Below are positions 2,178-32,381 of a stretch of 64,000 bases of DNA, in pieces. The stretch lies in contig CAYJVR010000002.1 of NCBI GenBank assembly GCA_964373715.1, positions 118,521 through 182,520 on the forward strand, in the 5' to 3' direction. The DNA comes from an uncultured Planctomycetia bacterium (GTDB lineage Bacteria; Omnitrophota; Gorgyraeia; 1-14-0-20-64-10). Each line of letters starts with the position of its first letter. Positions within the stretch are counted from its first letter, which is position 1. The notes beneath the pieces are model-generated. The model was not told the DNA's origin, did no database searches, and saw nothing but the letters and a program-made list of their open reading frames with translations. Position numbers and translations under genes: made by a program.

Positions 2178-3206
2178 ATGGCAATTTCGAAACCAAAGAT
2201 CGCTTTCTTTGAGACCGAGCCCTGGGAAAGAGCGGTCATCCGGAGCGGCCCTTTAAAATCAGAGGCACGCTTGGTTTTTTATTCCAAGCCCATTCATGAA
2301 ATTCCGCAGAAGGAAATCGCCGGGATGGATGCCGTCTCCGTCTTCATCTATTCCCGTCTGGATGCCCGGATCCTTAAAAAGATGCCCCGGTTGAAGCTTG
2401 TGGCCACCCGTTCCACAGGTTACGACCACATAGATTTGAAAACTGCGCGCCGGAAAGGGATCGTCGTGGCGAATGTCCCTTCCTACGGCGAGAACACGGT
2501 GGCGGAGCACACCTTCGCGCTGATCTTGTCCCTCTCCAGGAACGTCCATAAGGCCTATATGAGGACCTCAAGAGGGGATTTCTCGCTCGATGGGCTTCAG
2601 GGGTTCGATCTCAAGGGGAAAATCTTAGGAGTCGTCGGAGCCGGCCACATCGGCCTTCACGTGATCAAGATGGCCAAAGGTTTTGGCATGGAGGTGGTGG
2701 CGTTCGATGTCCGGCGCCAGTTGTTTTTGTCGGAGGTGCTTGATTTCCGGTATGCCGCGTTTGAAGAACTGCTCAAAGTTTCTGATATCGTCACGCTCCA
2801 CACCCCGTACAGCCTCGCCACCCACCATCTGATCAACCGCCGGACGATCCAGCAGATGAAGAGGTGGGCTCTGCTAATCAACACCGCACGAGGCGCTCTC
2901 GTGGAAACGGACGCCCTCGTCTGGGCCCTGGATGAGGGGATTATCGCCGGCGCCGCCCTCGATGTGCTCGAGGGGGAGGATCTGATCAAAGAGGAGCGGC
3001 AGCTTTTGGCCGCCGATTTCTCAAAGGAGAAACTGATTACCGCTCTCAAAAACCATATTCTCCTTCATAGGGAAAACGTGGTCATTACCCCGCACGTCGC
3101 CTTTAATTCGAAAGAGGTCCTCCGCCGGATTGTTGACACGACGGTTATTAACATCCGGCAGTTTTTCCGGGGAACTCCTGCCAACGTTGTAAATCCCGCC
3201 CCTTAG
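2178..3206 (+). CDS. D-isomer-specific 2-hydroxyacid dehydrogenase (D-lactate / phosphoglycerate dehydrogenase family)
   Basis: NAD-binding GVVGAGHIG motif, a catalytic-loop-like region (NTARGALVET), and a His-containing ITPHVAF motif. Confidence 0.8.
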   Translation: MAISKPKIAFFETEPWERAVIRSGPLKSEARLVFYSKPIHEIPQKEIAGMDAVSVFIYSRLDARILKKMPRLKLVATRSTGYDHIDLKTARRKGIVVANVPSYGENTVAEHTFALILSLSRNVHKAYMRTSRGDFSLDGLQGFDLKGKILGVVGAGHIGLHVIKMAKGFGMEVVAFDVRRQLFLSEVLDFRYAAFEELLKVSDIVTLHTPYSLATHHLINRRTIQQMKRWALLINTARGALVETDALVWALDEGIIAGAALDVLEGEDLIKEERQLLAADFSKEKLITALKNHILLHRENVVITPHVAFNSKEVLRRIVDTTVINIRQFFRGTPANVVNPAP

Positions 3207-3302
3207 GGGTTCCAGAAATTCACAGTCTCTATGATCCCGGTCATACACCGGGCCCACCCTATTTCTGTAAACTTCTATCCAGAGAAAGAAAGGGCCACTA
3301 TT

Positions 3303-3908
3303 ATGGTTCGGTGGGATGAAGGGATCGAGAGGGATCATGATATTTTGACGCATCAAGTCGATGCGCTGGAAGCGGCCCTGGCGGTGGATGTCACGGACGA
3401 GGACCGGAGAGTTGTGCTGGCATGGATTGTTCAGACCCTGTGGCCGGCTTTAGAGCTGCACCTGAGAAAAGAGGAGGAGGTCCTTTTCCCGGCGGTCCAT
3501 CGCCTGATCGGCGAGAATGCCGGGGCGGTTACCTTGATGCAGGAGGAACACAAAGAATTAAGAGATGCGCACCGGCGCTTGGCGGAACTGCTTCAGGTCT
3601 ATGAACACACAAATTGGGACGGGATCCGGCTGGCCGCCGAGTCGCTGATGGAAAGGTTGGAAGACCACAGGAAAAAAGAAAAGCGCCTCGTCCTGGATGT
3701 TCTGGAATACAGTTTAAAATCCAAAGAGCTGAAAGATCTTGTCAAGGAACTGGAAGAGGTAGCCCGCCGCGCCCACGAAGAGGAGGGGTGGCCCGCCACT
3801 ATTTTGTACAACAAAAGGGCCGTCAGTCCTCCCGGGCGCGGTTTAAATGTTCCGGATGAAATAGGGTATGGAAGCGTTTCCCATGAAATAACAGCGGAGA
3901 AGCCATGA
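3303..3908 (+). CDS. Hemerythrin-like (HHE cation-binding domain) protein. The ORF track starts it at 3231; I prefer the internal ATG at 3303.
   Basis: LELHLRKEEEVLFP motif and H/E-rich helices. Its stop overlaps the nirK start (ATGA at 3905-3908). Confidence 0.65.
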   Translation: MVRWDEGIERDHDILTHQVDALEAALAVDVTDEDRRVVLAWIVQTLWPALELHLRKEEEVLFPAVHRLIGENAGAVTLMQEEHKELRDAHRRLAELLQVYEHTNWDGIRLAAESLMERLEDHRKKEKRLVLDVLEYSLKSKELKDLVKELEEVARRAHEEEGWPATILYNKRAVSPPGRGLNVPDEIGYGSVSHEITAEKP

Positions 3909-4957
3909 AAGAAAAAAGGTTCTGGTTCGGGATAGCCGTAATGGCGATGAGTGCGGCGGGTATTGTTGGCTTAAGTTGTTCGGAGGTTTCGGCGGAGGTC
4001 TGGAAGCGTGAAAAGGCCCAGTTGACCTACGCCCCGGAAGTTCCCCCTCCGATCACCCGAAAGAGCCCAGCGATCGTGGAGGTCTACTTGGATTCCAGCG
4101 TCAATGTTGCCGAAATAGGTCCAAACGCTCAATATCAGTTTTGGGGGTTTAACGGCCATGTCCCCGGTCCGTTCATCCGGACGAGAGTGGGGGACATGCT
4201 CGAGGTGCATGTCAGCAACACCGACGTTAGCGGGATGCCTCACAATGTGGATTTCCACGCGGTGACGGGGCCCGGAGGTGGGGCGAAAGTCACCACGGTT
4301 GTCGAGGGGGAGAAGCGGACGGTCTGGTTCAAGATGCTCCATCCAGGGCTGTATGTTTATCACTGCGCCGCCCCTCCTGTGATGGACCATATCGCCAACG
4401 GGATGTACGGCCTGATTCTGGTGGAGCCCAAAGGAGGGCTTCCGAAGGTGGACAAGGAATTTTACGTCCTGCAGAGCGAGTTTTACACCAAAGACCCGGC
4501 GGAAGGCCAGGAGCTTCTCGAATTTTCGCATGACAACGGCGTTTTGGAGCATCCCCGATTTGTCGTGTTCAACGGCCGGGAAGGGTCTTTGACGAACGAA
4601 GGAACACTTAAGGCAAAAACAGGGGATAAGGTCAGGATCTATTTCGGCAACGCGGGCCCGAACCTCATCTCCTCGTTCCATGTGATTGGTGAGATTTTCG
4701 ACAATGTCTACCGAGAAGGGGATCTCGTCAGCCAGCCAGCCCACAGTGTACAGACGACGCTCGTGCCGGCGGGAGGGGCCACGGTGGTGGACTTCGGACT
4801 GGAGGTTCCTGGAACATACACTTTGGTGGACCACGCTATCTTCCGGATAGGCAAAGGGGCGGTCGGTTTCTTGGAAGCGGAGGGAAAACCCCGGCATGAC
4901 ATCTATGCGACCGAAGATGATCCGGAGCCGTGCGAAGGGTGTCTTGTCCATCCTTAA
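3905..4957 (+). CDS. nirK: Copper-containing nitrite reductase NirK (two-domain multicopper oxidase)
   Basis: Signal peptide; type-1/type-2 Cu ligand motifs HNVDFHA and YVYHCAAPPVMDHIANGMYG. Length of about 350 aa. Confidence 0.9.
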   Translation: MKEKRFWFGIAVMAMSAAGIVGLSCSEVSAEVWKREKAQLTYAPEVPPPITRKSPAIVEVYLDSSVNVAEIGPNAQYQFWGFNGHVPGPFIRTRVGDMLEVHVSNTDVSGMPHNVDFHAVTGPGGGAKVTTVVEGEKRTVWFKMLHPGLYVYHCAAPPVMDHIANGMYGLILVEPKGGLPKVDKEFYVLQSEFYTKDPAEGQELLEFSHDNGVLEHPRFVVFNGREGSLTNEGTLKAKTGDKVRIYFGNAGPNLISSFHVIGEIFDNVYREGDLVSQPAHSVQTTLVPAGGATVVDFGLEVPGTYTLVDHAIFRIGKGAVGFLEAEGKPRHDIYATEDDPEPCEGCLVHP

Positions 4958-4978
4958 ATGGAGGGGTAGGAGGACCGC

Positions 4979-5476
4979 ATGATTGAGTGGGACAGCCAGC
5001 TGAGGCAGGAACATGACGACCTGGACGCGCAGGTCAAACTGCTGGAGCAGGCGTTGGCAGGCAAGAATGGCCCTCAATCCCGATGGGGGGCTCTCTCCCA
5101 CCTGGTAATCCGGAGTCTTGGGCCGCATCTCGAACTCCATCTGAGGAAAGAGGAGCAGGTGCTGTTTCCTGCTCTTGAAAAGATCGCGGGAGGAGAGATC
5201 GAGGAGGTCCGGAAGCTGATTGAACAGCACCAGCAGTTGAGGGCCACTTTGAGGGAATTGGCGGACCAGCTGTCCGAGCCGCGCCGGGAGAATATCAATT
5301 GGCGGCAGGTAAGTGAATCCGGTGAAAAATTCATGCGGGCTCTCGGAGAACACGAACGCCAGGAAGAGCATATGCTCAAAGATGTTCTCGAAGCCAGCTT
5401 GAAACCGAGAGAGCTCATGAAGCTCGCGGAGGGGTTTCACCAGGTAACGTGGAAAGCTTTTCAGGAGGAGTTGTAG
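4979..5476 (+). CDS. Hemerythrin-like (HHE domain) protein, paralog of 3303-3908
   Basis: LELHLRKEEQVLFP, shared with the upstream hemerythrin-like ORF; directly follows nirK. Confidence 0.7.
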   Translation: MIEWDSQLRQEHDDLDAQVKLLEQALAGKNGPQSRWGALSHLVIRSLGPHLELHLRKEEQVLFPALEKIAGGEIEEVRKLIEQHQQLRATLRELADQLSEPRRENINWRQVSESGEKFMRALGEHERQEEHMLKDVLEASLKPRELMKLAEGFHQVTWKAFQEEL

Positions 5477-5480
5477 CGCC

Positions 5481-5753
5481 ATGCGTATCGTTGTAGCGAT
5501 TGCCGGGCCCGGGGGTTTTGCTCCCAAGACGGCAAGCCGTTTGAAGCAGAAATTAGTTCAGCGCGGATTAGGGGTTCAGCTTCTCAAAAGGAAAGAGGAG
5601 AAGGTTTCTCCGGAGACGGACGTGGTTTTGCTTTCCTGCTCGAATGAAGATGTCAACGGTTTGGCTCAGTGGATCGAGAGCGAATGGAACGAGCAATGGA
5701 ACGGATGGTTTGCTTTGAATAGGAAAAAACAGAAAGGAGTAGAACAGGCTTAA
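5481..5753 (+). CDS. Hypothetical small protein (90 aa)
   Basis: ORF 5 nt downstream of the second hemerythrin gene; no recognisable motif. Confidence 0.3.
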   Translation: MRIVVAIAGPGGFAPKTASRLKQKLVQRGLGVQLLKRKEEKVSPETDVVLLSCSNEDVNGLAQWIESEWNEQWNGWFALNRKKQKGVEQA

Positions 5754-7738: not shown

Positions 7739-8035
7739 TTAGATATGGATCAGTGTCAGCCCCAGAAAAATCAGGAGGCCGGCCAGCCCGAGAAGGAAAA
7801 ACGGGAAGACCGCAACGGCCCATATCGGTATGAATTTCTCGAACTTCATATGCATGAAATAAAGGCCGACCAGGGCCGTCTTTACCAGCGAGATTCCGAG
7901 GATGATGAGGGCGATCCCTGTCCTGGAGATCGGCAGATAGGAGACAAACGTTCCTGCCGCCAGCAGTGCGATAAGAAAAGCCCAGATGACGAGGTACTTT
8001 CCGTAGTTTGGAACCGCGTGTGTTTCAGTGCTCAT
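7739..8035 (-). CDS. Cytochrome c oxidase subunit IV (prokaryotic CoxD/CtaF-like small subunit)
   Basis: 98 aa, three TM helices, position right after coxC, with an ATGA overlap. Confidence 0.7.
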   Translation of the reverse strand: MSTETHAVPNYGKYLVIWAFLIALLAAGTFVSYLPISRTGIALIILGISLVKTALVGLYFMHMKFEKFIPIWAVAVFPFFLLGLAGLLIFLGLTLIHI

Positions 8036-8619
8036 ATGAGGTACACCATGGGGAATAGAAAGATCCAGACGACATCCACGAAGTGCCAGTACAGCCCCGA
8101 GAGCTCAACGAGGTGGCCTTTCCTTTCGAAAAAATCCCTTTTCAGCGTCAGCGACAAAACCCACAGGTTTGCCAGAGCGCCGATCAGGACGTGCAGGCCG
8201 TGGATGCCGGTCAGCGTGAAGTAAACATCCCAGAACAGCCCCGTTCCAGGTAGGTGGCCGTGGTGGAACTTGACCGAATACTCGTAGCCCTTTACCCCGA
8301 GGAAGGCGCAGCCGAGCAGGATTGTCGCCAACAGAAACATCCGGAGTCTCCCGGTATCTCTGCGGTGCACCGCGGCCACAGACAGAGCCATGGTCATCGA
8401 GCTCGAAAGCAGGATAAAGGTGTTCACTGCCGCCGCCGGGACGTTCAATTCGTCGGCTGGATGGGGCCAGTGTGTGCCGGCGCGCAGCACGATATAGGCT
8501 CCCAAAAGACCGGCAAAGAACATGACCTCGGAGGCAAGGAACACCCACATCCCCAGCTTGGCGGTAGGAATGCCGGTTTGAGTTGTTTCCATCGAGTTTA
8601 CGGCTATGGTTGAACTCAT
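8032..8619 (-). CDS. ctaE: Cytochrome c oxidase subunit III
   Basis: GMWVFLASEVMFF, FTLTGIHGLHV and YWHFVDVVWIFLF motifs. Confidence 0.9.
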   Translation of the reverse strand: MSSTIAVNSMETTQTGIPTAKLGMWVFLASEVMFFAGLLGAYIVLRAGTHWPHPADELNVPAAAVNTFILLSSSMTMALSVAAVHRRDTGRLRMFLLATILLGCAFLGVKGYEYSVKFHHGHLPGTGLFWDVYFTLTGIHGLHVLIGALANLWVLSLTLKRDFFERKGHLVELSGLYWHFVDVVWIFLFPMVYLI

Positions 8620-8620
8620 T

Positions 8621-10414
8621 TTAGATCACCTTATCGAGTGTCATCGTTATTAGGATAACAGGCAGATACATGATTGAAGCAAGAAAAAGCCTCCGGGCCG
8701 ACACGTTGGATCGGGTCCAGGCGATTGCCAATCCAAAACCGAGGAAGGTCAGCCCACTGATCAGAGCGGTGAGAAAGTAAAGCCAGCCGGCTAGCCCGAA
8801 TGCCGCCGGCATGAGGCTGACCGGGATCAGTGCGAGCAGGTAAAGAACGATTTGCCGGCTTGTCAGATCTCCATCCGGATCCACGATCGGAAGCATCTTG
8901 AAATCGGCTTTCGCGTAATCTTCCCGGTAGGCCCAAGCGATCGCGAGAAAATGGGGAAGCTGCCAGAGGAAGAGGATCGAAAAAAGTATCCAGGCTTCTA
9001 TGCCGAAGGAGTTTCTTACCGCCGCCCAGCCGATCAGTGGAGGGATGGCGCCGGGAACCGCTCCCGCCAAAGTGCAGAGGGGGGATACCGATTTCATCGG
9101 CGTGTAAATGAACAAGTAGGACCCCGCTGTCAGCGCGGCCAGCCCGCCGGCAAGGGGGTTTGCCCCGAGAGAAAGGATCAAAAAGCCGGCAATCGAAAGC
9201 CCTATGCCGAAAACCAGCGCCGACCGGGGACTGAGGAGCCCCGAGGGCAGAGGGCGATGTTTCGTCCGATCCATCCGGCCATCTGCTTCCCGTTCCATCC
9301 ATTGGTTGAGGGCTCCGGAGCCTCCGCCGACCAAAGCCGTTCCGAAAAAAACGGCCAGCAGGAGGTGGGCGTTAAAAGAGGCCAACGGTGCGGCGAAGAA
9401 AAATCCAAGCAGGCTCGTCAGGACGGCCAAAAAGGTCAGCCTTGGTTTGGTCAGTTCGAGATAAGCGCGCAGAGGCCTGCCCGTCATGAGTGTGGGCTGA
9501 AGCGGCCGGACGATAAAACGGTAGACGGAGGTGGCTAATACGGCGCAGGCGGCCAGAAGGAGGGCCCCTACCGCCACATGTGCGGTGGCTGCTCCGACTG
9601 CGGCCCCCTGAGCAAAGGTGGTTATTCCTAAGATAATCTGAGCCATCAGAAGCCAGGGAAGCAGGCGGGCCGTTCCCTGAAGAAGCCTGTTTCGGCGGTA
9701 CTGCCGCAGGGTTGTCCCGGCAGTCCAGAGGATGCAGGCGGCCGCCGCGAAAGCCCCAGCGGCGTGGGCGCCGATAAGATCCGGCAGCCAGCCGACATGC
9801 CGGAGCGCAGCGCCCAGAATAAGTTGGAGGTAGACCGCCGCTGTGGTGAGAACAGCCATTTTTGCCAACTTCCGGCCTTCTTTTGAAGGCTGCAGGACCA
9901 TCCTTTCAGACAGCCAGGCAGGGGACAGTGCTGTCGCCAGTATAACGAGCGTCGCGAAGAATGCTTGTCCCAGGCAGGCATGCGCTATCGAAATTTCATG
10001 AGGCAGCTGCAGAAGAACGGTCAATCCGCCCAGGATCCCCTGGAAGACCACCAGGGCGAAAGAAACCAGCGCCAGCCAGCGGATAGTGCGGCGCCGTTCA
10101 AGAAAGAGAATACAGAGGGTTTGGGTCAGCGTCAGCAGGCCTACCGTGGCGGCGATCACCCGGTGGCTGTGCTCGAAACGGATTCCTCCCACCATCGGAG
10201 GGAAGAGGCTCCCGTAAGAAAGGGGCCAATCCGGGACGGCCAATCCGGAGTCGGTGGAGGTCACAAGCCCTCCCGCCATGACCAGGATGAACCCGGCTGC
10301 CGCTGTTAACAGGGAGAACCGGTACAGAAAAAAGGAACCGCTTCTGCGCGGCTGAGAAACGGATGTCCGGCTGGAATCTTTCGTGAGTTCTGTTGTTGCC
10401 CGCGTGCTGCTCAC
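8621..10414 (-). CDS. Fused heme A synthase (CtaA/COX15) and protoheme IX farnesyltransferase (CtaB/CyoE). The true start is probably the GTG at 10414 that overlaps the coxA stop; the 815-aa ORF in the track is an artefactual 5' extension.
   Basis: N-terminal half: GGLVTSTDSGLAVPDWPL plus multiple His-containing TM helices (CtaA). C-terminal half: YLELTKPRLTFL, GGGSGALNQWMEREADGRMDRTKHRPL, PPLIGWAAV (UbiA/CtaB). GTGA overlap with the coxA stop. Confidence 0.85.
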   Translation of the reverse strand: MSSTRATTELTKDSSRTSVSQPRRSGSFFLYRFSLLTAAAGFILVMAGGLVTSTDSGLAVPDWPLSYGSLFPPMVGGIRFEHSHRVIAATVGLLTLTQTLCILFLERRRTIRWLALVSFALVVFQGILGGLTVLLQLPHEISIAHACLGQAFFATLVILATALSPAWLSERMVLQPSKEGRKLAKMAVLTTAAVYLQLILGAALRHVGWLPDLIGAHAAGAFAAAACILWTAGTTLRQYRRNRLLQGTARLLPWLLMAQIILGITTFAQGAAVGAATAHVAVGALLLAACAVLATSVYRFIVRPLQPTLMTGRPLRAYLELTKPRLTFLAVLTSLLGFFFAAPLASFNAHLLLAVFFGTALVGGGSGALNQWMEREADGRMDRTKHRPLPSGLLSPRSALVFGIGLSIAGFLILSLGANPLAGGLAALTAGSYLFIYTPMKSVSPLCTLAGAVPGAIPPLIGWAAVRNSFGIEAWILFSILFLWQLPHFLAIAWAYREDYAKADFKMLPIVDPDGDLTSRQIVLYLLALIPVSLMPAAFGLAGWLYFLTALISGLTFLGFGLAIAWTRSNVSARRLFLASIMYLPVILITMTLDKVI

Positions 10415-12156
10415 CGAGGAGGGTTCCCCGAGGGTTTTTCCGTCTGGAGCTGCCAGTCCTTCTTCATTCCGGGCACGGAATATTCGTACGGCCCGCAATA
10501 AACGGTGACCGGCCCCGTGAAGTTGCCGTGAGGCGGGGGGGAAGGGGTGATCCATTCCAAAGTTGTGGCTTCCCAAGGGTTTTCCCCGGCCTTCTCCCCG
10601 CGGATCAGGCTCCAGAAGAAGTTCACCATGAAGATAAGCTGGGATGCCATCAGGCAGAAGGCGCCGATGCTCATGAGCTGGTTTAAATCTTTGAAATGGA
10701 CGAGGCCGGTGTACTGGGTATAGTCGTAAATCCGGCGCGGCATGCCGCCCATCCCTAAGACGAACATCGGGAACATCACCATATTGAAGAAGATGAAGGT
10801 CGGCCAGAAATGGATTTTCCCGAGCAGGTCGTTCATTTTCCGGCCGAACATCTTCGGATACCAGAAGGTAATGCCGGCAAAGGCGCCGAAAAGAGAACCG
10901 CCGAACAGGACGTAATGGAGATGTCCCACCACGAAATAGGTGTCGTGCAGGTACATATCCACCGGCGCGGAGCCCAAGAAAATGCCGGTTAATCCGCCGA
11001 TAACAAACATGGAGATGAATCCCAGCGCATGCAGCATCGGCGTAGTTATCCGGATGGAACCTCTCCAAAGCGTTGCCAGCCAGCTGAATACCTTGATGCC
11101 GGTCGGTACCGCAATCAGCATTGTCGAAATCATGAAGGTTGTGCCCAGCGCGGGATTCATTCCTGTCTGGAACATATGATGCGCCCAGACGAGGAACCCG
11201 ACGGCACCGATGCCCACTGCCGAGTAGGCGATCGCTTTGTATCCGAAGATCGGCTTTCGCGCGAAAGTCGGAAGGATGTCGGATATGAATCCCATCGCCG
11301 GAAGGATCATGATGTAAACAGCCGGGTGGGAGTAGAACCAGAAAAGGTGCTGCCAGAGAATAGGCTGTCCGCCCGCGTGGGCCGTCAGAGGATCGCCGTT
11401 AATGATCATGCCGGCGGGGAGGAAAAAGCTGGTCCCGAGCGTCCGGTCCAGCAGCAGCAGGATCATGGCCGAAGCGAGCACCGGCGTCGCCAGCACGGTC
11501 AGGATCGCCGTGGTGAACAAGGCCCAGATGGAGATCGGCATCCTGTGGAAGCTCATTCCGGGAGCCCTGTGGTTGATGATTGTGGCGATATAGTTGACGC
11601 CGCCGAAGATCGAAGAGAAACCGAGCAGGATTACGCCGGACACCCAGCAGGTTTGCCCCATTCCAGATGTCTCTTTCAAACCGCTTAAGGGCGGATAAGC
11701 GGTCCATCCGGTCGCTGCTGCCCCCCCTTCCACGAAAAAGCCGAACAGGACGATAGCCGCCGCGGGAACAAACATCCAGAAGGAAAGCATGTTCAGCCTC
11801 GGGAAGGCCATATCCGCGGCGCCGATCTTCAGCGGGATCAGGTAGTTGCCGAAGGCTCCCACCAAAAGGGGAATAATCCCGAAAAAGATCATGATCGAGC
11901 CGTGCATCGTAAAGAGCATGTTGTAGTATTCAGGCACCATCACTCCGCCCGGCATTCCTTCTGGGGCGATCTTTTCCATAAAACCCAACGGGGCGCCCGG
12001 CCAGCCCAGCTGCCAGCGCATCAGCATCGCCAGCAGGCCTCCCACCACCATGAACAGGAGGGAACTGATGAGGAACTGGATACCGATGACCTTGTGGTCG
12101 GTGGAGAAGATGTACTTCCGGATAAAACCGGGTTTCTGATGAGATGCGCTACTCAT
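10411..12156 (-). CDS. ctaD: Cytochrome c oxidase subunit I (heme-copper oxidase catalytic subunit)
   Basis: HGSIMIFF, WAHHMF, GGLTGI and HDTYFVVGHLHYVL motifs; 12 or more TM helices. Confidence 0.95.
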   Translation of the reverse strand: MSSASHQKPGFIRKYIFSTDHKVIGIQFLISSLLFMVVGGLLAMLMRWQLGWPGAPLGFMEKIAPEGMPGGVMVPEYYNMLFTMHGSIMIFFGIIPLLVGAFGNYLIPLKIGAADMAFPRLNMLSFWMFVPAAAIVLFGFFVEGGAAATGWTAYPPLSGLKETSGMGQTCWVSGVILLGFSSIFGGVNYIATIINHRAPGMSFHRMPISIWALFTTAILTVLATPVLASAMILLLLDRTLGTSFFLPAGMIINGDPLTAHAGGQPILWQHLFWFYSHPAVYIMILPAMGFISDILPTFARKPIFGYKAIAYSAVGIGAVGFLVWAHHMFQTGMNPALGTTFMISTMLIAVPTGIKVFSWLATLWRGSIRITTPMLHALGFISMFVIGGLTGIFLGSAPVDMYLHDTYFVVGHLHYVLFGGSLFGAFAGITFWYPKMFGRKMNDLLGKIHFWPTFIFFNMVMFPMFVLGMGGMPRRIYDYTQYTGLVHFKDLNQLMSIGAFCLMASQLIFMVNFFWSLIRGEKAGENPWEATTLEWITPSPPPHGNFTGPVTVYCGPYEYSVPGMKKDWQLQTEKPSGNPPR

Positions 12157-12811
12157 TTGCCTTGGTCTCCCTCAGCCAAGCTTCAAAATCGATCAAAGGT
12201 TCCGTCTTCACAAATCCCTTCATGCGGTAGTGGCCCAGGCCGCATAATTCGGCGCACCGGATTTCGAATTCCCCAGCCTGCGTCGCTTCAATCCAGACCT
12301 CATTGTTCATGCCCGGCACGGCGTCCTGTTTGATCCTCAGCTCGGGTACGAAAAAGCTGTGGATGACGTCTTTCGATTTCACGTGGACCAGGACAGGCAC
12401 GCCGACAGGCAGGTGGAGCTGGTTGATCGTCGCGATGTCATCCTCCGTGTTGAACTGGCTGTCGGGACCGGGGTACCGGACGTTCCAGACGAATTGCTCG
12501 CCCAGGAGCTCTATTTGCAGAGAGGTTGCCGGCGCGAATCTCGGGTACCGGATTTCGGCCCATACCTTCTGGCTGGCGACGGTCAGCAGCAGCAGAATGA
12601 CGGCCGGTATCGCTGTCCAGACCACCTCAATCAGCGTGTTTCCGTGGAGGTACTGGGCTTTTTTCCCCGGTTTGGCCCGGTAGATCAGGACAAAGGCGAG
12701 CAAGACTCCCTGAACCAGGAAGAAAAAGAAGCCGGTAATCCAGACGATGACCCAGAAAAGCTGGTCAACCTGGTGGCCGTAGCTGGAAACATTCGGAGGA
12801 AGCCAATTCAT
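12149..12811 (-). CDS. ctaC: Cytochrome c oxidase subunit II (CuA; no fused cytochrome c domain)
   Basis: Two N-terminal TM helices and a CuA site (HSFFVPELRIKQDAVPG...CAELCGLGHYRM). Confidence 0.9.
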   Translation of the reverse strand: MNWLPPNVSSYGHQVDQLFWVIVWITGFFFFLVQGVLLAFVLIYRAKPGKKAQYLHGNTLIEVVWTAIPAVILLLLTVASQKVWAEIRYPRFAPATSLQIELLGEQFVWNVRYPGPDSQFNTEDDIATINQLHLPVGVPVLVHVKSKDVIHSFFVPELRIKQDAVPGMNNEVWIEATQAGEFEIRCAELCGLGHYRMKGFVKTEPLIDFEAWLRETKANE

Positions 12812-12838
12812 GGAGGCGGTATCGGTCCTTGTATTGGC

Positions 12839-13594
12839 TTACTGGGCGGCCTTGAAGGCAAACGATACCTGCTTCGTTTCTCCGTCCGCCACCGTGACCG
12901 ACTGGGTCTGCGCGCCGAGCTTCTCGTGCCATGCCGAGACCGTGTAGGTGCCGGCCGGAAGGTTTGCCAAGCTGAACGATCCGTTCGCGTCCGAAACGGC
13001 GAAAAACGGGTTGGTTGTCACCACCGCGTGAGCGTTCATCCAGGGGTGAACGTTGCACTTGAAGGAGATACCCTCCGGCTGATCGAAACTTTTGGAGATC
13101 TTCATTCCCTTTGTCGGTTGGGCGATGTTGAATTTTTTGTTGAGCTTCGGCTGGCAGTTAACGTTATGGAGGGTCGGGTCGTTGTTCACAATCTCCAGCG
13201 GTTGGCCGGCCTGGATCGCAAAAACGTGCGGTTGGTAAACACAGCCGGTTTGGTTCAGCACGACCGGGGTCTTCGGGGCGGGGTAGGTCCCAGGAGCGAT
13301 CCCTTCCTTAATGTAGATGACGACGTTCTGGAGCTTTCCGCCATTGGCCAGCATCGATTCCTCCAAAACTGGGTCCTTGTGCTGCTGCTGGCAAGCCGGG
13401 TCGGCGTTCATCTTGATCTTCTGCATCGCGGGAGCGGTTCCATCAAAGGTGACTGTTCCGTTGAGGGATGAGGTTCCCGTCGCGGCGCGGGCTTCGGTCG
13501 CGGAACCGGCAGCCAATGCGGTCCCGGCGGCCAGTGCCAGCGCAAAAACAGTAAACCCGAACATGCTGAAACCGGACTTCGAAAGATTTCCCAT
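12839..13594 (-). CDS. Secreted cupredoxin (type-1 blue copper) protein with a C-terminal Ig-like / carboxypeptidase-regulatory-like domain
   Basis: Signal peptide; upstream His (LHNVN) plus a C-x2-H-x2-M motif (CNVHPWM); C-terminal SDANGSFSLANLPAGTYTVSAW beta-sandwich signature. Confidence 0.65.
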   Translation of the reverse strand: MGNLSKSGFSMFGFTVFALALAAGTALAAGSATEARAATGTSSLNGTVTFDGTAPAMQKIKMNADPACQQQHKDPVLEESMLANGGKLQNVVIYIKEGIAPGTYPAPKTPVVLNQTGCVYQPHVFAIQAGQPLEIVNNDPTLHNVNCQPKLNKKFNIAQPTKGMKISKSFDQPEGISFKCNVHPWMNAHAVVTTNPFFAVSDANGSFSLANLPAGTYTVSAWHEKLGAQTQSVTVADGETKQVSFAFKAAQ

Positions 13595-13652
13595 GTGAAT
13601 ATCTCCTTAAGTTTTTAGACAGTTATAAGCGCGTGCTCAAGAGGGTAAAACG

Positions 13653-15089
13653 TTACTTCAAGATGAAATTGACCCAGTTCGAGTTGGAGCGGCGGCGTCC
13701 CTGTTCCTGGTTTCCGCCGTCCCAGACCGTCAAGCCGATCAGCGTTGCTTCGCGGGAATCCAGAGCGACCCTGTCTTTTAATGAGGATTGCAATGGACGC
13801 TTCAAGAGCAGCGTCCACTGCCCGTCCGCGTAAGAGGCCTCCGCCGTAAGGGTTTCTCCCTGGGTTTTACCCGTTTCCAAGTCTGCTGTTCCCTGAACGA
13901 CAGCTTCCGATGCCCCGTTTTTACCGGCGGACCAGTAGCTGACATCGAGAGAAGGGGCGTCCTGGGAAGCTGGCCAGCTGCGCAGGGATCCGACGGTCCA
14001 TTTCATCGCCCGATTCGGCATAAGAATAATGCCGAGCGCGTCCGGGGGCGTCTGGCGGCTTTCGTCCGGATCATCCCACTGAAGACGAAAGATAACCGCC
14101 TCCTCATTGTACATCGCCTGGACGGAAACCGCATTCACGCGGACAGGCTCGATCTGCCCTTCCTTGTAGAGCTGGTTGCTCATCTGCAGGTCGGTGCGGG
14201 AAACCTGGCTCCACACCGGGTCTTGCGCTGTTTCCGGCAGACGCTGGCTCCGTTTCGCCTCTATCGTGCGGTTCCAGAGAGGGGCCTTCTGCAGGGAATT
14301 TACGTAATAGGCCAAAGCCCAGGCATCCTCTTTCGAGGAGATCGCGTCGGCGTAGGAGGGCATCGGGGTTCCGTCAATGCCGGTCATGATTCTCGTGACA
14401 ATCTCTTTCGGGCTTGATCCCCCCCTGTAGTTCCAGCCCTGCGTCAGGTTGGCGGGACGGATCGAGTTGCCCCAGTTATCCACCAGGGTCGCGGCGGACG
14501 GCCCGTCGCCGCGGCCGGCATTGCCGTGGCAGGAGGCGCATCCCAGCTGGGTGTACGACTCCTTCCCTTTGGCGATGCCGGCTTTTTCGGGACCGGGATC
14601 ATTCCCAAAGTTGACGACTTCCGGTTTAGAGTTCTCTTCCAGGAAGACGGGGGCCAGGCTTTTAACGAAATACACAAGCTGCCAGCGGGTTTCTTCCGGA
14701 AGCCTTTGGAATTCCGGCATCCGGCTGCCCGGCAGGCCGTTGGTGATCGTGTTAAAGAGGTCCTGGTCGGTCGGGACCGTGCCGCTGGCGGTGGTCCGGA
14801 ACTTGAAAACCCCTTCCGCGATATTTCTCGGTTTTGGGTCCATTTGCGCGGCGTCGGGGCCGTTCCCGGTGCCGGTTTCTCCGTGACAGCGGGTGCAGTT
14901 GGCGGCAAACGCCTCTTTGCCGGCCGCCAGATCGGGCGCCGGTTTGACGGGTGCCGTATCGGCGTAAGAGGGAATACTGCCGCTTGTCAGGATAAGCCAC
15001 GCGCACAGGCCGGCGAAGGCCACCGCGGCCAAGCAGGAAGGCTTTCGCGCCATTCCCCGATTCGATTTTAGGAAAATTGCAGGATTCAT
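13653..15089 (-). CDS. Dihaem cytochrome c fused to an EB_dh-like (ethylbenzene-dehydrogenase-type haem-binding / DOMON-like) domain; first gene of the oxidase operon
   Basis: Signal peptide/TM; two CxxCH sites (CTRCH, CASCH); C-terminal about 200 aa with YWSAG...TVWDGGNQEQG resembling the EB_dh fold. Confidence 0.7.
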   Translation of the reverse strand: MNPAIFLKSNRGMARKPSCLAAVAFAGLCAWLILTSGSIPSYADTAPVKPAPDLAAGKEAFAANCTRCHGETGTGNGPDAAQMDPKPRNIAEGVFKFRTTASGTVPTDQDLFNTITNGLPGSRMPEFQRLPEETRWQLVYFVKSLAPVFLEENSKPEVVNFGNDPGPEKAGIAKGKESYTQLGCASCHGNAGRGDGPSAATLVDNWGNSIRPANLTQGWNYRGGSSPKEIVTRIMTGIDGTPMPSYADAISSKEDAWALAYYVNSLQKAPLWNRTIEAKRSQRLPETAQDPVWSQVSRTDLQMSNQLYKEGQIEPVRVNAVSVQAMYNEEAVIFRLQWDDPDESRQTPPDALGIILMPNRAMKWTVGSLRSWPASQDAPSLDVSYWSAGKNGASEAVVQGTADLETGKTQGETLTAEASYADGQWTLLLKRPLQSSLKDRVALDSREATLIGLTVWDGGNQEQGRRRSNSNWVNFILK

Positions 15090-28176: not shown

Positions 28177-30831
28177 ATGGAATTGACCGAGAGGAGCACC
28201 GTTTCCCTGCCCAAAACCGTCGAGTGGCAGAAAGAGGGCGTTCATATTTTTCTTGATCCTGAGACGCCTCACTGGCTAGCGGCTGATTCCAGAGGGGCGC
28301 AGATCATGAGCTGGGCCAGGGGAGAGATGCCGGTCGGCCGGATCATTCAGCGTTATTCGGAGGCGCACGGGCTCGATACGGCGAAGAGCTGGCTTCACGT
28401 GACCGATTTTCTCTCCGCCCTTCTGCGCTCCGGTTTCGCCCGGACTGAACTGGTCGCCCGGGCTCCTTACCTCGGACGAGCCGCCTACGCCCGCCCGACC
28501 GGCTTAAAGGAGCTCTGGTTCCATACCAACAACATCTGCAATCTCTCTTGCTCCCATTGTCTTGTCAGTTCCGCCCCCTGGGTGCAGGACTGGGGCCTGC
28601 CGACAGACCGGTTCCTTTCTCTCGTGGATGAGGCGATCGAGCTGGGGGTGGACAGATTTTACTTCACCGGCGGCGAGCCGTTCATGCGCAAGGATATCTT
28701 TCATCTGATCCGCACCGTTACCGAGACGAAGGGTTGCGAGCTGATCATCCTGACCAACGCTACGCTGTTGAAAGGGGAGAAAGCGGAAGGGGTCAAAACC
28801 CTCAATCGCCAGAAGGTCCGGTTCCAGGTCAGCGTGGACGGCGCCTCCCCTGAAACCAACGATCCGATTCGAGGCAAGGGGTCGTTCCAGTCGGCGGTGG
28901 AGGGGTTAAGATACCTGGCTTCGCTCGGGTTCGAGACTTCCATCACAACGGCGGTGACCGGCACCAACCTGCAGGACCTGTTGGGGATCACCCGGCTTGC
29001 CCGGGAACTCGGCGTCAAAACCCAGCATTTGATGTGGCTCCATAAGCGGGGACGGATAGTGGGCCGGGAGGAGGTGGCTGCACCTGCTGCTGTGGCTGTC
29101 GCCGCCGGCGGGAACGGTTCCAAATCCCCCGGTTGGGCCGATGGCCATCAGAGAAAAATGAAAGCCTTTTCAGGTCAGACCGAGCTTGGATTTCCGGAAT
29201 CGCAGCAGCTCATTGATGCGGTCCGGAAGGTAAAGGTTTTGGCGGATGAGCTGGGTGTCACGGTGGACAACCTCGAGTCGATCAAATTGAGGGTCAACTC
29301 CCGTCCCGGTGTAAAGTACGACTTAGGAAATGCCTGCTGGGATTCTCTCTGCATCTATTCGGACGGGAAGGTGTATCCTTCCGCGGCGATGGCCAATTTC
29401 AAGCCGCTTATGCTGGGCTCGCTGAAAGAAACCCCCTCTTTAAAAGAGATTTGGCAGCGGTCTCCGGTCGCCGAAGCGTTCCGGCAGGCCTCCGTCAACC
29501 GGAAGGCTCACCTGGCCGATGATCCGCTTCGCTACCTCACAGGCGGTGGAGATTCGGAGCACAGTTTCTTTTTTAACTTAAACGGCGATTCGGAATCCGG
29601 GACGATTGCTCCCGAGAAGATCCTCGACATTCTGTCGGGTCCCGACCCGTACTACCCGGTTTATCAGGCGATGATCCAGGATGCGATCTGGGAAATCGTT
29701 CTGCACAAACGGGACGCGGTCAACCGGAAGTCTGGCTACGATGCCCCGCGCGTCCTGCACGCGATGGGGGACGGAGCGATACACTGCGCTACCGACGATT
29801 TGGCGATCACTGGAGAGATCGATGTGAGGACCCTGCACTCTAACTGTGTTCTCGCGTTCGACGTGGACAAGCCGAGAAAGATGGTGCGGGAGTTTTACGG
29901 CAAGGCGGCCGAAACGCCGCAGGCCGAGCTTTGCTGTCCCACGAAGTTCGACGATTCCGCGATCGCCCACATCCCGAAAGATGTGATCGACCGGTTCTAC
30001 GGCTGCGGTTCTCCGGTCACCTCCGGCAATTTGAAAGAGGGAGAGACCTTTTTGGATCTTGGCTCGGGCGCCGGGATAGACTGCTTCATTGCCGCCAAGC
30101 TCGTCGGCCCGAAGGGCAAGGTGCTCGGGATCGATATGACCGATCAGATGCTGAAGGTAGCTGAAGAAAACAAGCCGATCGTCGCAAAGAATCTCGGCTA
30201 TGACGTGGTGGAGTTCCGAAAAGGATTTCTCGAGACGGTTCCGGCTGACTCAAAAAGCGTTGATCTGATTACCTCCAACTGCGTGATCAATCTTTCGCCG
30301 GACAAACCGAAGGTTTTCTCCGAGATCTGGCGGATCTTGAAGGACAACGGACGGACCGTGATCGCCGATATTGTCTCCGACCGGCCGGTGCCGGCCCATC
30401 TGAAGGTCAATCCCCAGTTGTGGGGCGAGTGCACCGTGGGGGCTCTGACCGAAGAGGAATTCCTGGCCCATCTTCAGGAAGCCGGTTTCTACGGCCTCTC
30501 GGTCTTGAAGAAGGTCTACTGGAAATCGATCGACGGCTACGATTTTTACTCGGTCACGGTGGCCGGCTACAAGTTCGAAAAGACGGCCGGCTGCACGTTC
30601 ATCGGGCAGAGGGCGATTTATCTGGGCCCGATGAAATCGGTCATGGACGAGGAAGGGCACCTGTTCCCCCGGGATGTGGAGGTGGAGGTTTGCACCGACA
30701 CCGCGGCGAAGCTCTCGAAGCCGCCGTACGCCGGCTCGTTCACTGTGATCCAACCGGACGCTCAGCGGATCTCTGTGACCGCGAACATGCAGTCTGCCGA
30801 TAGCGGCTGCGGTCCCGCAGGCTGCTGCTGA
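28177..30831 (+). CDS. Four-part fusion: PqqD-like RRE + radical SAM + SPASM/twitch-like Cys cluster + ArsM-type As(III) SAM methyltransferase, with a C-terminal Cys-rich tail (CGPAGCC)
   Basis: Residues 20-85 are PqqD/RRE-like (IFLDPETPHWLAADSRGAQIMSWARGE...DFLSALLRSG). CNLSCSHC (CxxxCxxC) + FTGGEP. NACWDSLCIYSDGKVYPS (SPASM-like). ArsM hallmarks FYGCGSP, LDLGSGAGIDCF, ITSNCVINLSPDKPKVF and WGECTVGAL. The last 12 aa are SADSGCGPAGCC. Its stop overlaps the arsR start (TGATG). Confidence 0.85.
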   Translation: MELTERSTVSLPKTVEWQKEGVHIFLDPETPHWLAADSRGAQIMSWARGEMPVGRIIQRYSEAHGLDTAKSWLHVTDFLSALLRSGFARTELVARAPYLGRAAYARPTGLKELWFHTNNICNLSCSHCLVSSAPWVQDWGLPTDRFLSLVDEAIELGVDRFYFTGGEPFMRKDIFHLIRTVTETKGCELIILTNATLLKGEKAEGVKTLNRQKVRFQVSVDGASPETNDPIRGKGSFQSAVEGLRYLASLGFETSITTAVTGTNLQDLLGITRLARELGVKTQHLMWLHKRGRIVGREEVAAPAAVAVAAGGNGSKSPGWADGHQRKMKAFSGQTELGFPESQQLIDAVRKVKVLADELGVTVDNLESIKLRVNSRPGVKYDLGNACWDSLCIYSDGKVYPSAAMANFKPLMLGSLKETPSLKEIWQRSPVAEAFRQASVNRKAHLADDPLRYLTGGGDSEHSFFFNLNGDSESGTIAPEKILDILSGPDPYYPVYQAMIQDAIWEIVLHKRDAVNRKSGYDAPRVLHAMGDGAIHCATDDLAITGEIDVRTLHSNCVLAFDVDKPRKMVREFYGKAAETPQAELCCPTKFDDSAIAHIPKDVIDRFYGCGSPVTSGNLKEGETFLDLGSGAGIDCFIAAKLVGPKGKVLGIDMTDQMLKVAEENKPIVAKNLGYDVVEFRKGFLETVPADSKSVDLITSNCVINLSPDKPKVFSEIWRILKDNGRTVIADIVSDRPVPAHLKVNPQLWGECTVGALTEEEFLAHLQEAGFYGLSVLKKVYWKSIDGYDFYSVTVAGYKFEKTAGCTFIGQRAIYLGPMKSVMDEEGHLFPRDVEVEVCTDTAAKLSKPPYAGSFTVIQPDAQRISVTANMQSADSGCGPAGCC

Positions 30832-32312: not shown

Positions 32313-32381
32313 GCGAGTACGAGCGGAGAAATTCCAGCGCCTCTTTTTGCCCTCATTTATGATTTCCGTCATATAAATGGT

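Follow-up and report, generated by a model that had tools for sequence, protein, structure and literature searches.

Two hemerythrin-like genes flank a class II nirK in a predicted Crp/Fnr-controlled operon of an uncultured Omnitrophota bacterium

The HHE1-nirK-HHE2-orf90 unit and its products

The DNA analysed here (the window) is a 64,000-nucleotide (nt) stretch of contig CAYJVR010000002.1 (positions 118,521 to 182,520, forward strand) from the genome assembly GCA_964373715.1 of an uncultured bacterium assigned to the Omnitrophota. Its plus strand carries four co-oriented, tightly packed open reading frames (ORFs), in which a nirK gene (3905-4957) stands between two genes for hemerythrin-like (HHE) proteins, HHE1 (3303-3908; ATG at 3303, TGA ending at 3908) and HHE2 (4979-5476), followed by a short ORF, orf90 (5481-5753). 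HHE1 and HHE2 are cytoplasmic single-domain proteins of 201 and 165 amino acids (aa), and NirK is a copper nitrite reductase of two domains that carries a signal peptide. The HHE1 stop overlaps the nirK start in an ATGA at 3905-3908, and the spacer between the nirK stop and the HHE2 start is 21 nt long and contains a Shine-Dalgarno sequence (AGGAGG) 5 nt ahead of the HHE2 ATG. A spacer of 4 nt separates the HHE2 stop from the 90-aa orf90, with which the unit ends, and a convergent MTHFR gene comes next. A first-pass annotation, made from the letters alone, had noted the ATGA overlap, the second HHE paralogue 21 nt after nirK and the common LELHLRKEE(E/Q)VLFP core of the two HHE proteins; all are present as described, and the packing of the genes fits the translational coupling it proposed. 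The fourth ORF, the promoter box and the gene fusions described below go beyond that annotation.

The public gene calls of the metagenome-assembled genome (MAG) GCA_947085675.1, of which the window is part (locus L001), include the same four genes, with an HHE1 of 201 aa. A longer HHE1 starting at ATG 3231 was rejected, because it would overlap the promoter box (3230-3245) and no homologue has the extension; HHE1 homologues begin with M-x-R-W. The orf90 gene is called as a 90-aa gene in L001 and in the closest relative (L002); the more distantly related L175, L179, and L003 lack it, and the orf90 product matches no Pfam or NCBIfam model. On the minus strand, a 518-aa ORF (3971-5527) lies antisense to nirK and HHE2, and is most likely a shadow ORF, since the sense-strand genes have strong family matches. 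Rfam and intrinsic-terminator scans returned nothing informative for the unit, and the 64-kb window contains no rRNA or tRNA gene.

The nirK product is classified by its sequence as a class II, AniA-type copper nitrite reductase, predicted to reduce nitrite to nitric oxide (NO). It passes the TIGR02376 equivalog model (317.6 bits, cut-off 296.3), and its best PDB match is gonococcal AniA (1kbv, E 1.5e-103). The alignment with 1kbv shows that the ligands of the type 1 (His, Cys, His, Met) and type 2 (three His) copper sites and the catalytic Asp/His motifs are all kept, within the segments HNVDFH, YHCAAPPVMDHIANGMYG, SFHVIGEIFD, and LVDHAIFR, including the pattern YHCA..H..M. These copper-ligand and catalytic residues are invariant in the clade (n = 44 members); the named relatives of the NirK are Elusimicrobia and Omnitrophota MAGs from groundwater. 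A hydrophobic N-terminal segment (residues 6-28) followed by VSA/EV qualifies as a signal peptide, and the signal sequence has no twin-arginine motif. At the other end of the protein, the C-terminal tail (...DDPEPCEGCLVHP, residues 335-350, window positions 4910-4957) extends beyond the AniA 1kbv alignment, which stops at residue 334. In 44 homologues, five of its residues (C343, G345, C346, H349, and P350) do not vary; in this lineage, which lacks nirV, the tail may serve to handle copper.

Both HHE proteins pass the PF01814 gathering score of 25.3, with 45.3 bits for HHE1 and 71.2 bits for HHE2, and contain the core segments LELHLRKEEEVLFP and LELHLRKEEQVLFP, respectively. Sharing 38% identity (E 1.5e-29), they are by sequence paralogues within a small subfamily; a search of 1.84 billion cluster representatives with an HHE1 profile yielded 22 at E <= 1e-30 and 55 at E <= 1e-10. 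The metal-ligating His and Glu residues, the presence of which the first-pass annotation had made decisive for its assignment, are found in both proteins as full sets of four His and two Glu: H12, H53/E57, H84, and H122/E126 in HHE1, and H12, H54/E58, H84, and H125/E129 in HHE2. The nearest solved protein by sequence is the di-iron domain of Escherichia coli YtfE (E ~1e-3 for HHE1, ~0.03-0.06 for HHE2). Mapped on the published list of YtfE di-iron ligands (PMC9052748), H53/E57 of HHE1 and H54/E58 of HHE2 correspond to YtfE H129/E133, H84 of HHE1 to H160, and H125/E129 of HHE2 to H204/E208.

The AlphaFold2 (AF2) models of both proteins are helical bundles (pLDDT 85.6 for HHE1 and 80.8 for HHE2), to which HHE1 adds a disordered tail of ~40 residues from about residue 165. 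Foldseek gives modest support (E ~4e-3, TM-scores ~0.56-0.6), with 6q09 (a homologue of Rv2633c), 3cax (PF0695), 2p0n (NMB1532), and the FBXL5 hemerythrin domain as top matches of HHE1, and 3cax and the FBXL5 domain as those of HHE2. Neither protein contains a hydrophobic segment, and both begin directly at helix 1 of the bundle; they have no match to ScdA_N (PF04405), the N-terminal domain with the conserved Cys pair of the YtfE/ScdA type. Membership in the YtfE/RIC/ScdA/DnrN family was rejected, as the proteins lack ScdA_N and score 21-32 bits against the respective models (TIGR03652, NF008221, and NF041614), the cut-offs of which lie between 204.7 and 300. Among the NCBIfam matches at E up to 0.01, RIC-type and unrelated weak ones were the only ones found, without any O2-carrier hemerythrin family. 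The hemerythrin-like assignment of the first-pass annotation holds at the level of PF01814 and the six ligands, but not at that of the YtfE/ScdA/DnrN family it had named.

The two groups differ in how strictly the ligands are conserved. All six are invariant in the HHE2 family (n = 7 sequences, down to 43% identity), whereas the HHE1 family keeps H12, H53, E57, and H122 throughout but has N or L in place of H84 in several members and V, T, or I in place of E126 in many. The substitutions H84 to N and E126 to V occur together in P0014, P0022, P0024, P0037, and the L175 gene at 4444-5004, as if some members of the family had lost one iron site in a coupled manner; both residues are present in the window HHE1. 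A further difference concerns a loop rich in Cys that connects helices 3 and 4 (CECGC, CQCGCEHH, CDCGCEPEAC, or CECDC), seen in most HHE2-type proteins in a comparison of the orthologues P0004-P0007, L175 6799-7296, and L179 4334-4849. The window HHE2 (SEPRRENIN at residues ~98-106) and its two closest relatives lack this loop.

Conservation, gene fusions, and the neighbourhood of nirK

Conservation of the arrangement in relatives, on which the first-pass annotation had staked its reading, is found in L002, L175, and L179, that is, in three further lineages with an HHE1-nirK-HHE2 bracket. L002 has the same four genes, HHE1-nirK-HHE2-orf90. In the groundwater contig L179, a P-type ATPase and a CBS gene precede HHE1 (63% identity), nirK (75%), an HHE2-type gene, and a 527-aa unnamed ORF. 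In L175 (GCA_964603095.1), an ADP-forming acetyl-CoA synthetase gene is followed by HHE1 (4-nt overlap), nirK (78%), a Crp/Fnr gene, an HHE2-type gene, and a nitroreductase gene. The bracket is thus kept at 57-63% HHE1 and 75-78% NirK identity amid differing flanking genes. Partial versions of the arrangement are also found. In L003/L005, a gene for a 95-aa secreted protein is followed by nirK, HHE2 (43% identity), and a membrane protein gene; in L010/L011, HHE1 lies two genes from nirK and overlaps the gene of a PAS histidine kinase, after which come a 97-aa ORF and nirK. L181 encodes both HHE types in tandem without nirK, L007 and L012 encode HHE1 without nirK, and L176, L016-L018, and most JGI metagenome loci encode close NirK relatives without an HHE neighbour.

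Besides these genes, conserved proteins matching no Pfam or NCBIfam model recur in the nirK/HHE clusters of the relatives, with sizes of ~100, 122, 143-200, and 521-581 aa (L010 7295-10288, L012 5164-7710, L003 2029-2631, L179 4867-6450, and L177 1992-4945). At least one of them is a membrane protein (L003), and the cluster proteins of 97, 102, 122, 197-200, and 527-581 aa received no NCBIfam name. Nitroreductase-family and YceI genes also recur in these clusters.

In three homologues of the window NirK with 75-78% identity (P0037, P0050, and P0052), HHE1 and NirK form a single ORF of 525-531 aa; P0050 stems from the Elusimicrobia MAG locus L015. These fusions start with an HHE1-type domain, which a variable linker and a single hydrophobic helix connect to NirK. 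The helix stands where NirK otherwise has its signal peptide, and the di-iron domain is therefore predicted to be cytoplasmic and NirK to lie outside the membrane. It is unlikely that the fusions are frameshift artefacts of the ATGA overlap, given linkers that differ in length and sequence and an origin from three assemblies. P0050 and P0052 have an internal Met directly ahead of the hydrophobic segment, so NirK could also be translated separately. The best 150 matches of the HHE1-profile search included no fusion-length representative; fusions are therefore either rare or hidden inside other clusters.

For a broader view of the neighbourhood of nirK, same-strand ORFs on either side of the gene were scanned against Pfam in 80 species-representative genomes with a class II NirK. 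Downstream of nirK, the FGE-sulfatase family (nirV) was found at 54 of 79 representative loci, SCO1/SenC at four, and hemerythrin at none. Upstream, hemerythrin was the commonest Pfam family (6/74, two with ScdA_N), ahead of Rrf2 (5), cytochrome c (4), and NnrS (2). The six MAGs with an upstream hemerythrin are labelled Nitrospinales, Kofleriaceae, Bacteroidetes/Bacteroidales (two), Ignavibacteriales, and Bacillota, and the fused Elusimicrobia gene comes in addition. When searched with an iterated profile, hemerythrin-like ORFs occurred within ~6 kb of nirK at 21 of 80 genome loci and 11 of 80 metagenome loci, and all ten ORFs checked against Pfam were assigned to PF01814.

Several of these loci contain canonical RIC genes (ScdA_N plus hemerythrin), which adjoin nirK in Bacteroidota and Nitrospinales in the same position as HHE1. 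The order RIC, single-domain HHE, nirK is found in L055 (4489-5917), L064 (4653-5919), and L174 (1987-3410), a RIC-HHE pair lies downstream of nirK in L151 (3884-5124), and L022 has a RIC-nirK pair with a ScdA_N-containing RIC; such RIC-HHE tandems beside class II nirK come from Bacteroidota MAGs and metagenome contigs. A pair of di-iron proteins beside class II nirK thus recurs across phyla. Particular to the lineage of the window are the flanking arrangement, the two single-domain paralogues, the fusions, and a nirK without a neighbouring nirV. The first-pass annotation had called this an unusual nirK context, which is borne out by the prevalence of nirV and the lack of downstream hemerythrin genes in the sampled loci, but less so upstream, where hemerythrin genes recur in several phyla.

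A putative Crp/Fnr-type promoter box and other features of the window

Upstream of the unit lies a palindromic Crp/Fnr-type box (TATGATCCCGGTCATA, 3230-3245, plus strand), the end of which is 57 nt ahead of the HHE1 ATG. A -10-like hexamer (TAAACT, 3268-3273, plus strand) follows 22 nt after the box, in the geometry of a class II activator. The distance between box and -10-like hexamer is that of class II FNR/FixK-type promoters. Three features of such promoters coincide in this sequence: a TGAT-N4-ATCA core, a -10-like hexamer after ~21 nt, and a regulator gene nearby. In L002, L007, L010, L012, and L175, a 16-mer of the same class (TATGAY-N4-RTCATA) precedes HHE1-type genes by 55-75 nt; the 16-mer also heads HHE-containing clusters in L177/L178 and L015, and lies between a Crp and a PAS-GGDEF gene in L001 and L010. 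In L002, L007, L010, and L012, as in the window, it is followed after 21-22 nt by a TAnnCT hexamer (TAAACT, TAACCT, or TACACT).

The full 16-mer is present in two copies in the window, each in front of a gene, where we estimate ~0.02 copies per 64 kb by chance. The second copy (TATGATTTCCGTCATA, 32358-32373, plus strand) is followed after 21 nt by a perfect TATAAT, and its end lies 57 nt ahead of a gene for a Porin_5 protein (PF16930; 32431-33723, plus strand), after which comes a DUF3047 gene. Judging from its box, the Porin_5 gene is probably another member of the same predicted Crp/Fnr-type regulon.

Genes for Crp/Fnr proteins are found near most loci with the box, and in the genome of the window one lies ~7 kb upstream on the same strand. 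They fall into a group A, which is linked to HHE1 and the box and stands directly upstream of the lone HHE1 in L007, and a group B, whose genes immediately precede HHE2-type genes in L006 and L175. A TTVETxIR recognition helix is common to the two groups; their best NCBIfam matches, all below threshold, are FixK, FtrB, FnrL, and Fnr, and no named model was passed. Beyond the start of the window, L001 (2403-4796, same strand as the nirK unit) encodes the Crp/Fnr protein, a member of group A at 2403-3050, followed by the box, a PAS-GGDEF gene, and a 225-aa protein with a weak match to CBM30; the Crp and PAS-GGDEF pair with the box recurs in L010, and a CBM30-like gene recurs beside the HHE tandem in L181. 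In addition, the 10-mer AAATCCCGCC lies at or beside the stop of the gene preceding HHE1 in the window (3191-3200), L010 (4255-4264), and L012 (4457-4466), three unrelated flanking contexts; elsewhere among the 181 loci it is rare. The 10-mer might be the border of a mobile cassette made up of promoter and HHE1, or else a second regulatory site.

Downstream of the unit, the minus strand of the window encodes an aa3-type cytochrome oxidase (7739-15089) with COX2, COX1, a fused CtaA-CtaB (COX15 + UbiA), COX3, COX4, and DUF420 genes, preceded by genes for a cupredoxin/CarboxypepD_reg-like protein and a fusion of di-haem cytochrome c with an EB_dh domain. This gene content suggests an aerobe or microaerophile carrying nirK. 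A functional link between the HHE genes and the oxidase cluster was rejected, as the synteny is not conserved (L175 and L179). Unrelated to the nirK unit is an 884-aa ORF (28177-30831, plus strand) with an unusual fusion of radical SAM, SPASM, and C-terminal SAM-methyltransferase domains.

Possible roles of the di-iron proteins and comparison with known systems

We propose that HHE1, nirK, HHE2, and orf90 form one operon transcribed from a class II promoter that would depend on a Crp/Fnr-family regulator, and that its two cytoplasmic di-iron proteins deal with the NO or nitrite that comes from NirK, a reading to which we give an even chance of being correct. NirK would be exported by its Sec-type signal peptide and convert nitrite to NO outside the cytoplasmic membrane, while HHE1 and HHE2, having no export signal, would remain in the cytoplasm. 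Because of the gene overlap and the short spacers, they are probably produced together with NirK. Their predicted di-iron centres most likely bind or turn over NO (or nitrite/HNO2) diffusing in from NirK. In this way they would shield metal centres, those of the Fe-S type included, which is what NorA, DnrN, and YtfE do elsewhere, and the proteins may also set the NO level that reaches the Crp/Fnr regulator. In the fusions, the di-iron domain would be placed at the cytoplasmic face, directly beneath a periplasmic NirK.

This proposal builds on the conserved linkage of the genes, the fusions, the intact ligand sets, the RIC genes in an analogous position, and the literature. Genes for DnrN-type di-iron proteins belong to the core of NO-responsive regulons, in which norA- and ytfE-type genes are likewise placed, and the predicted regulons of the Crp/Fnr protein HcpR include hemerythrin-like genes (PMC1274295); NorA helps to protect Fe-S proteins during denitrification (PMC9045102). 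Several observations speak against it. HHE1 and HHE2 are not members of the RIC family by ScdA_N or NCBIfam score, one or two ligands are missing from some HHE1 orthologues, among them a fusion, HHE1-type genes occur without nirK and adjoin only a Crp gene (L007 and L012), close NirK relatives lack an HHE neighbour (L176, L016-L018, and L095), and the source organism is an uncultured MAG. Of the NO-buffering or O2/NO-sensing pair envisaged by the first-pass annotation, the NO-related role gains indirectly from the RIC genes at the same position, but the sequences do not separate buffering from sensing or catalysis.

The main rival sees the HHE proteins as sensors of NO or O2 that relay the redox or ligand state of the di-iron centre to a histidine kinase, PAS-GGDEF cyclases, or a Crp/Fnr protein, thereby tuning nirK expression or a cyclic di-GMP-dependent lifestyle switch. 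H-NOX and NosP proteins are paired with kinases and cyclases in a similar way. In line with such a role, HHE1 overlaps the PAS-HisKA-HATPase gene by 4 nt in L010/L011, a PAS-GGDEF gene stands directly upstream of the L015 fusion and the L178 HHE cluster and is preceded by the same box in L001 and L010, and Crp genes directly precede HHE2-type genes (group B, L006 and L175) or a lone HHE1 (group A, L007). The structural neighbours include the iron- and O2-sensing hemerythrin domain of FBXL5, and the ligand loss in HHE1 orthologues speaks against catalysis, so a scaffold or sensor fits it better than a catalyst. Nevertheless, no kinase or cyclase gene adjoins the unit in the window, where the PAS-GGDEF gene is ~5 kb upstream, and both translational coupling and fusion to NirK suit a stoichiometric partner more than a low-copy sensor. 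Canonical RIC proteins, which are not signalling proteins, also occupy the same position in other phyla. Overall, we regard the sensor reading as somewhat unlikely. The same ligand-degenerate orthologues weigh against cytoplasmic N-oxide enzymes, which would either reduce nitrite to NO like YtfE, providing an inducing signal, or reduce NO to N2O as a stand-in for nitric oxide reductase. Nitrite reduction to NO is known for di-ferrous YtfE and classical hemerythrin (PMC9052748), YtfE can be aligned over the HxxxEE..LFP segment, nitroreductase-family genes recur in the clusters of L175, L177, and L012, and the ORFs scanned in the window include no nor or nos gene. Yet a nor gene may lie elsewhere, as the window covers 64 kb of the genome, the operon encodes no reductase partner, and the proteins lack the ScdA_N domain and Cys pair that belong to the channel and mechanism proposed for YtfE, making an enzymatic function rather improbable.

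The proximity of the aa3-type oxidase, which lies close downstream on the opposite strand in both the window and L002, would agree with a function as O2-binding bacteriohemerythrins that serve the oxidase or shield nitrite respiration from O2. O2-carrying hemerythrins are known in methanotrophs. We consider this very unlikely, because cox genes are not linked in L175, L179, L003, and L010, while the linkage to nirK and Crp genes is conserved, and because the named NCBIfam matches are of the RIC type and not of an O2 carrier. It is hardly credible that the genes are chance neighbours without functional meaning. Some close relatives of NirK do lack HHE neighbours, but such an interpretation is contradicted by the conserved synteny in different contexts and by the fusions, and the start/stop overlap and the common promoter box also argue against it. 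The recurrence of the arrangement in divergent relatives and as gene fusions shows that it is not due to chance. At the opposite extreme, HHE1, with HHE2 as a partner, could physically belong, as a dedicated subunit, to a NirK complex that spans the membrane, of which the HHE1-helix-NirK fusions would represent the ancestral or extreme form. The di-iron module would then reduce NO crossing the membrane, substituting for nitric oxide reductase, or gate NirK in response to cytoplasmic NO or O2. This is improbable, but if true it would mean a new NirK architecture and a new role of hemerythrin domains in denitrification in uncultured groundwater phyla.

The unit bears on the question of how cells with nirK alone, which are often uncultured and without an obvious nor gene, cope with NO, a toxic and membrane-permeant gas. 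Together, the conserved operon, which would tie NirK stoichiometrically to two cytoplasmic di-iron proteins, the HHE::NirK fusions, and the RIC-HHE-nirK operons of Bacteroidota point to a widespread, undescribed class of nirK accessory genes, which in the lineage of the window take the place of nirV. A search of the open-access literature found no description of an HHE-nirK-HHE operon, an HHE::NirK fusion, or a RIC-HHE-nirK arrangement. In its presumed working, the unit resembles the known pairs of NO-producing or NO-consuming enzymes with di-iron proteins of the RIC/NorA type, and the concept itself is to be expected; new are the specific HHE-nirK-HHE module, the fusion architecture, and the promoter element. 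These provide concrete proteins, a promoter element, and an annotation rule for nirK neighbourhoods in metagenomes.

Among known systems, the proteins of the RIC family (YtfE, ScdA of Staphylococcus aureus, DnrN of Neisseria and Pseudomonas, and NorA of Cupriavidus/Ralstonia) share with HHE1 and HHE2 the helical bundle with four His and two Glu, the H-x3-E-E-x-x-LFP segment, and the genomic and presumably regulatory tie to denitrification and NO-stress genes, including RIC genes located directly upstream of class II nirK elsewhere. In contrast, the window encodes two paralogous single-domain copies that flank nirK and lack the ScdA_N domain and its Cys pair. HHE1 further differs by a conserved EEEGWP motif, the disordered tail, and the fusion to NirK in some relatives, and the predicted control of the unit is by a Crp/Fnr-type box and not by NsrR or NorR. 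This box resembles the class II promoters of FNR, FixK, and DNR (TTGAT-N4-ATCAA near -41.5) in its TGAT-N4-ATCA core, the -10-like hexamer 21-22 nt further on, and the nearby regulators with a TVETxIR motif, but it is flanked by TA...TA instead of TT...AA, and the regulators pass no named NCBIfam model.

The usual neighbourhoods of nirK (nirV, nnrS, NsrR/Rrf2, and ncgABC in nitrifiers) have in common with the unit small co-oriented accessory genes that are probably co-regulated by N-oxides or O2; the window unit differs in being without nirV, NnrS, and Rrf2. Finally, like the three-domain NirKs with an additional cupredoxin or cytochrome c domain, some relatives of the window NirK carry an extra fused domain. 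In the known enzymes this domain is an electron donor, whereas the fusions have a hemerythrin-like domain, separated by a hydrophobic helix and thus predicted to lie across the membrane from the enzyme; in the window itself, HHE1 and NirK are encoded by separate genes. If the fusions truly span two compartments, they would represent a new domain architecture beside the known three-domain NirKs.

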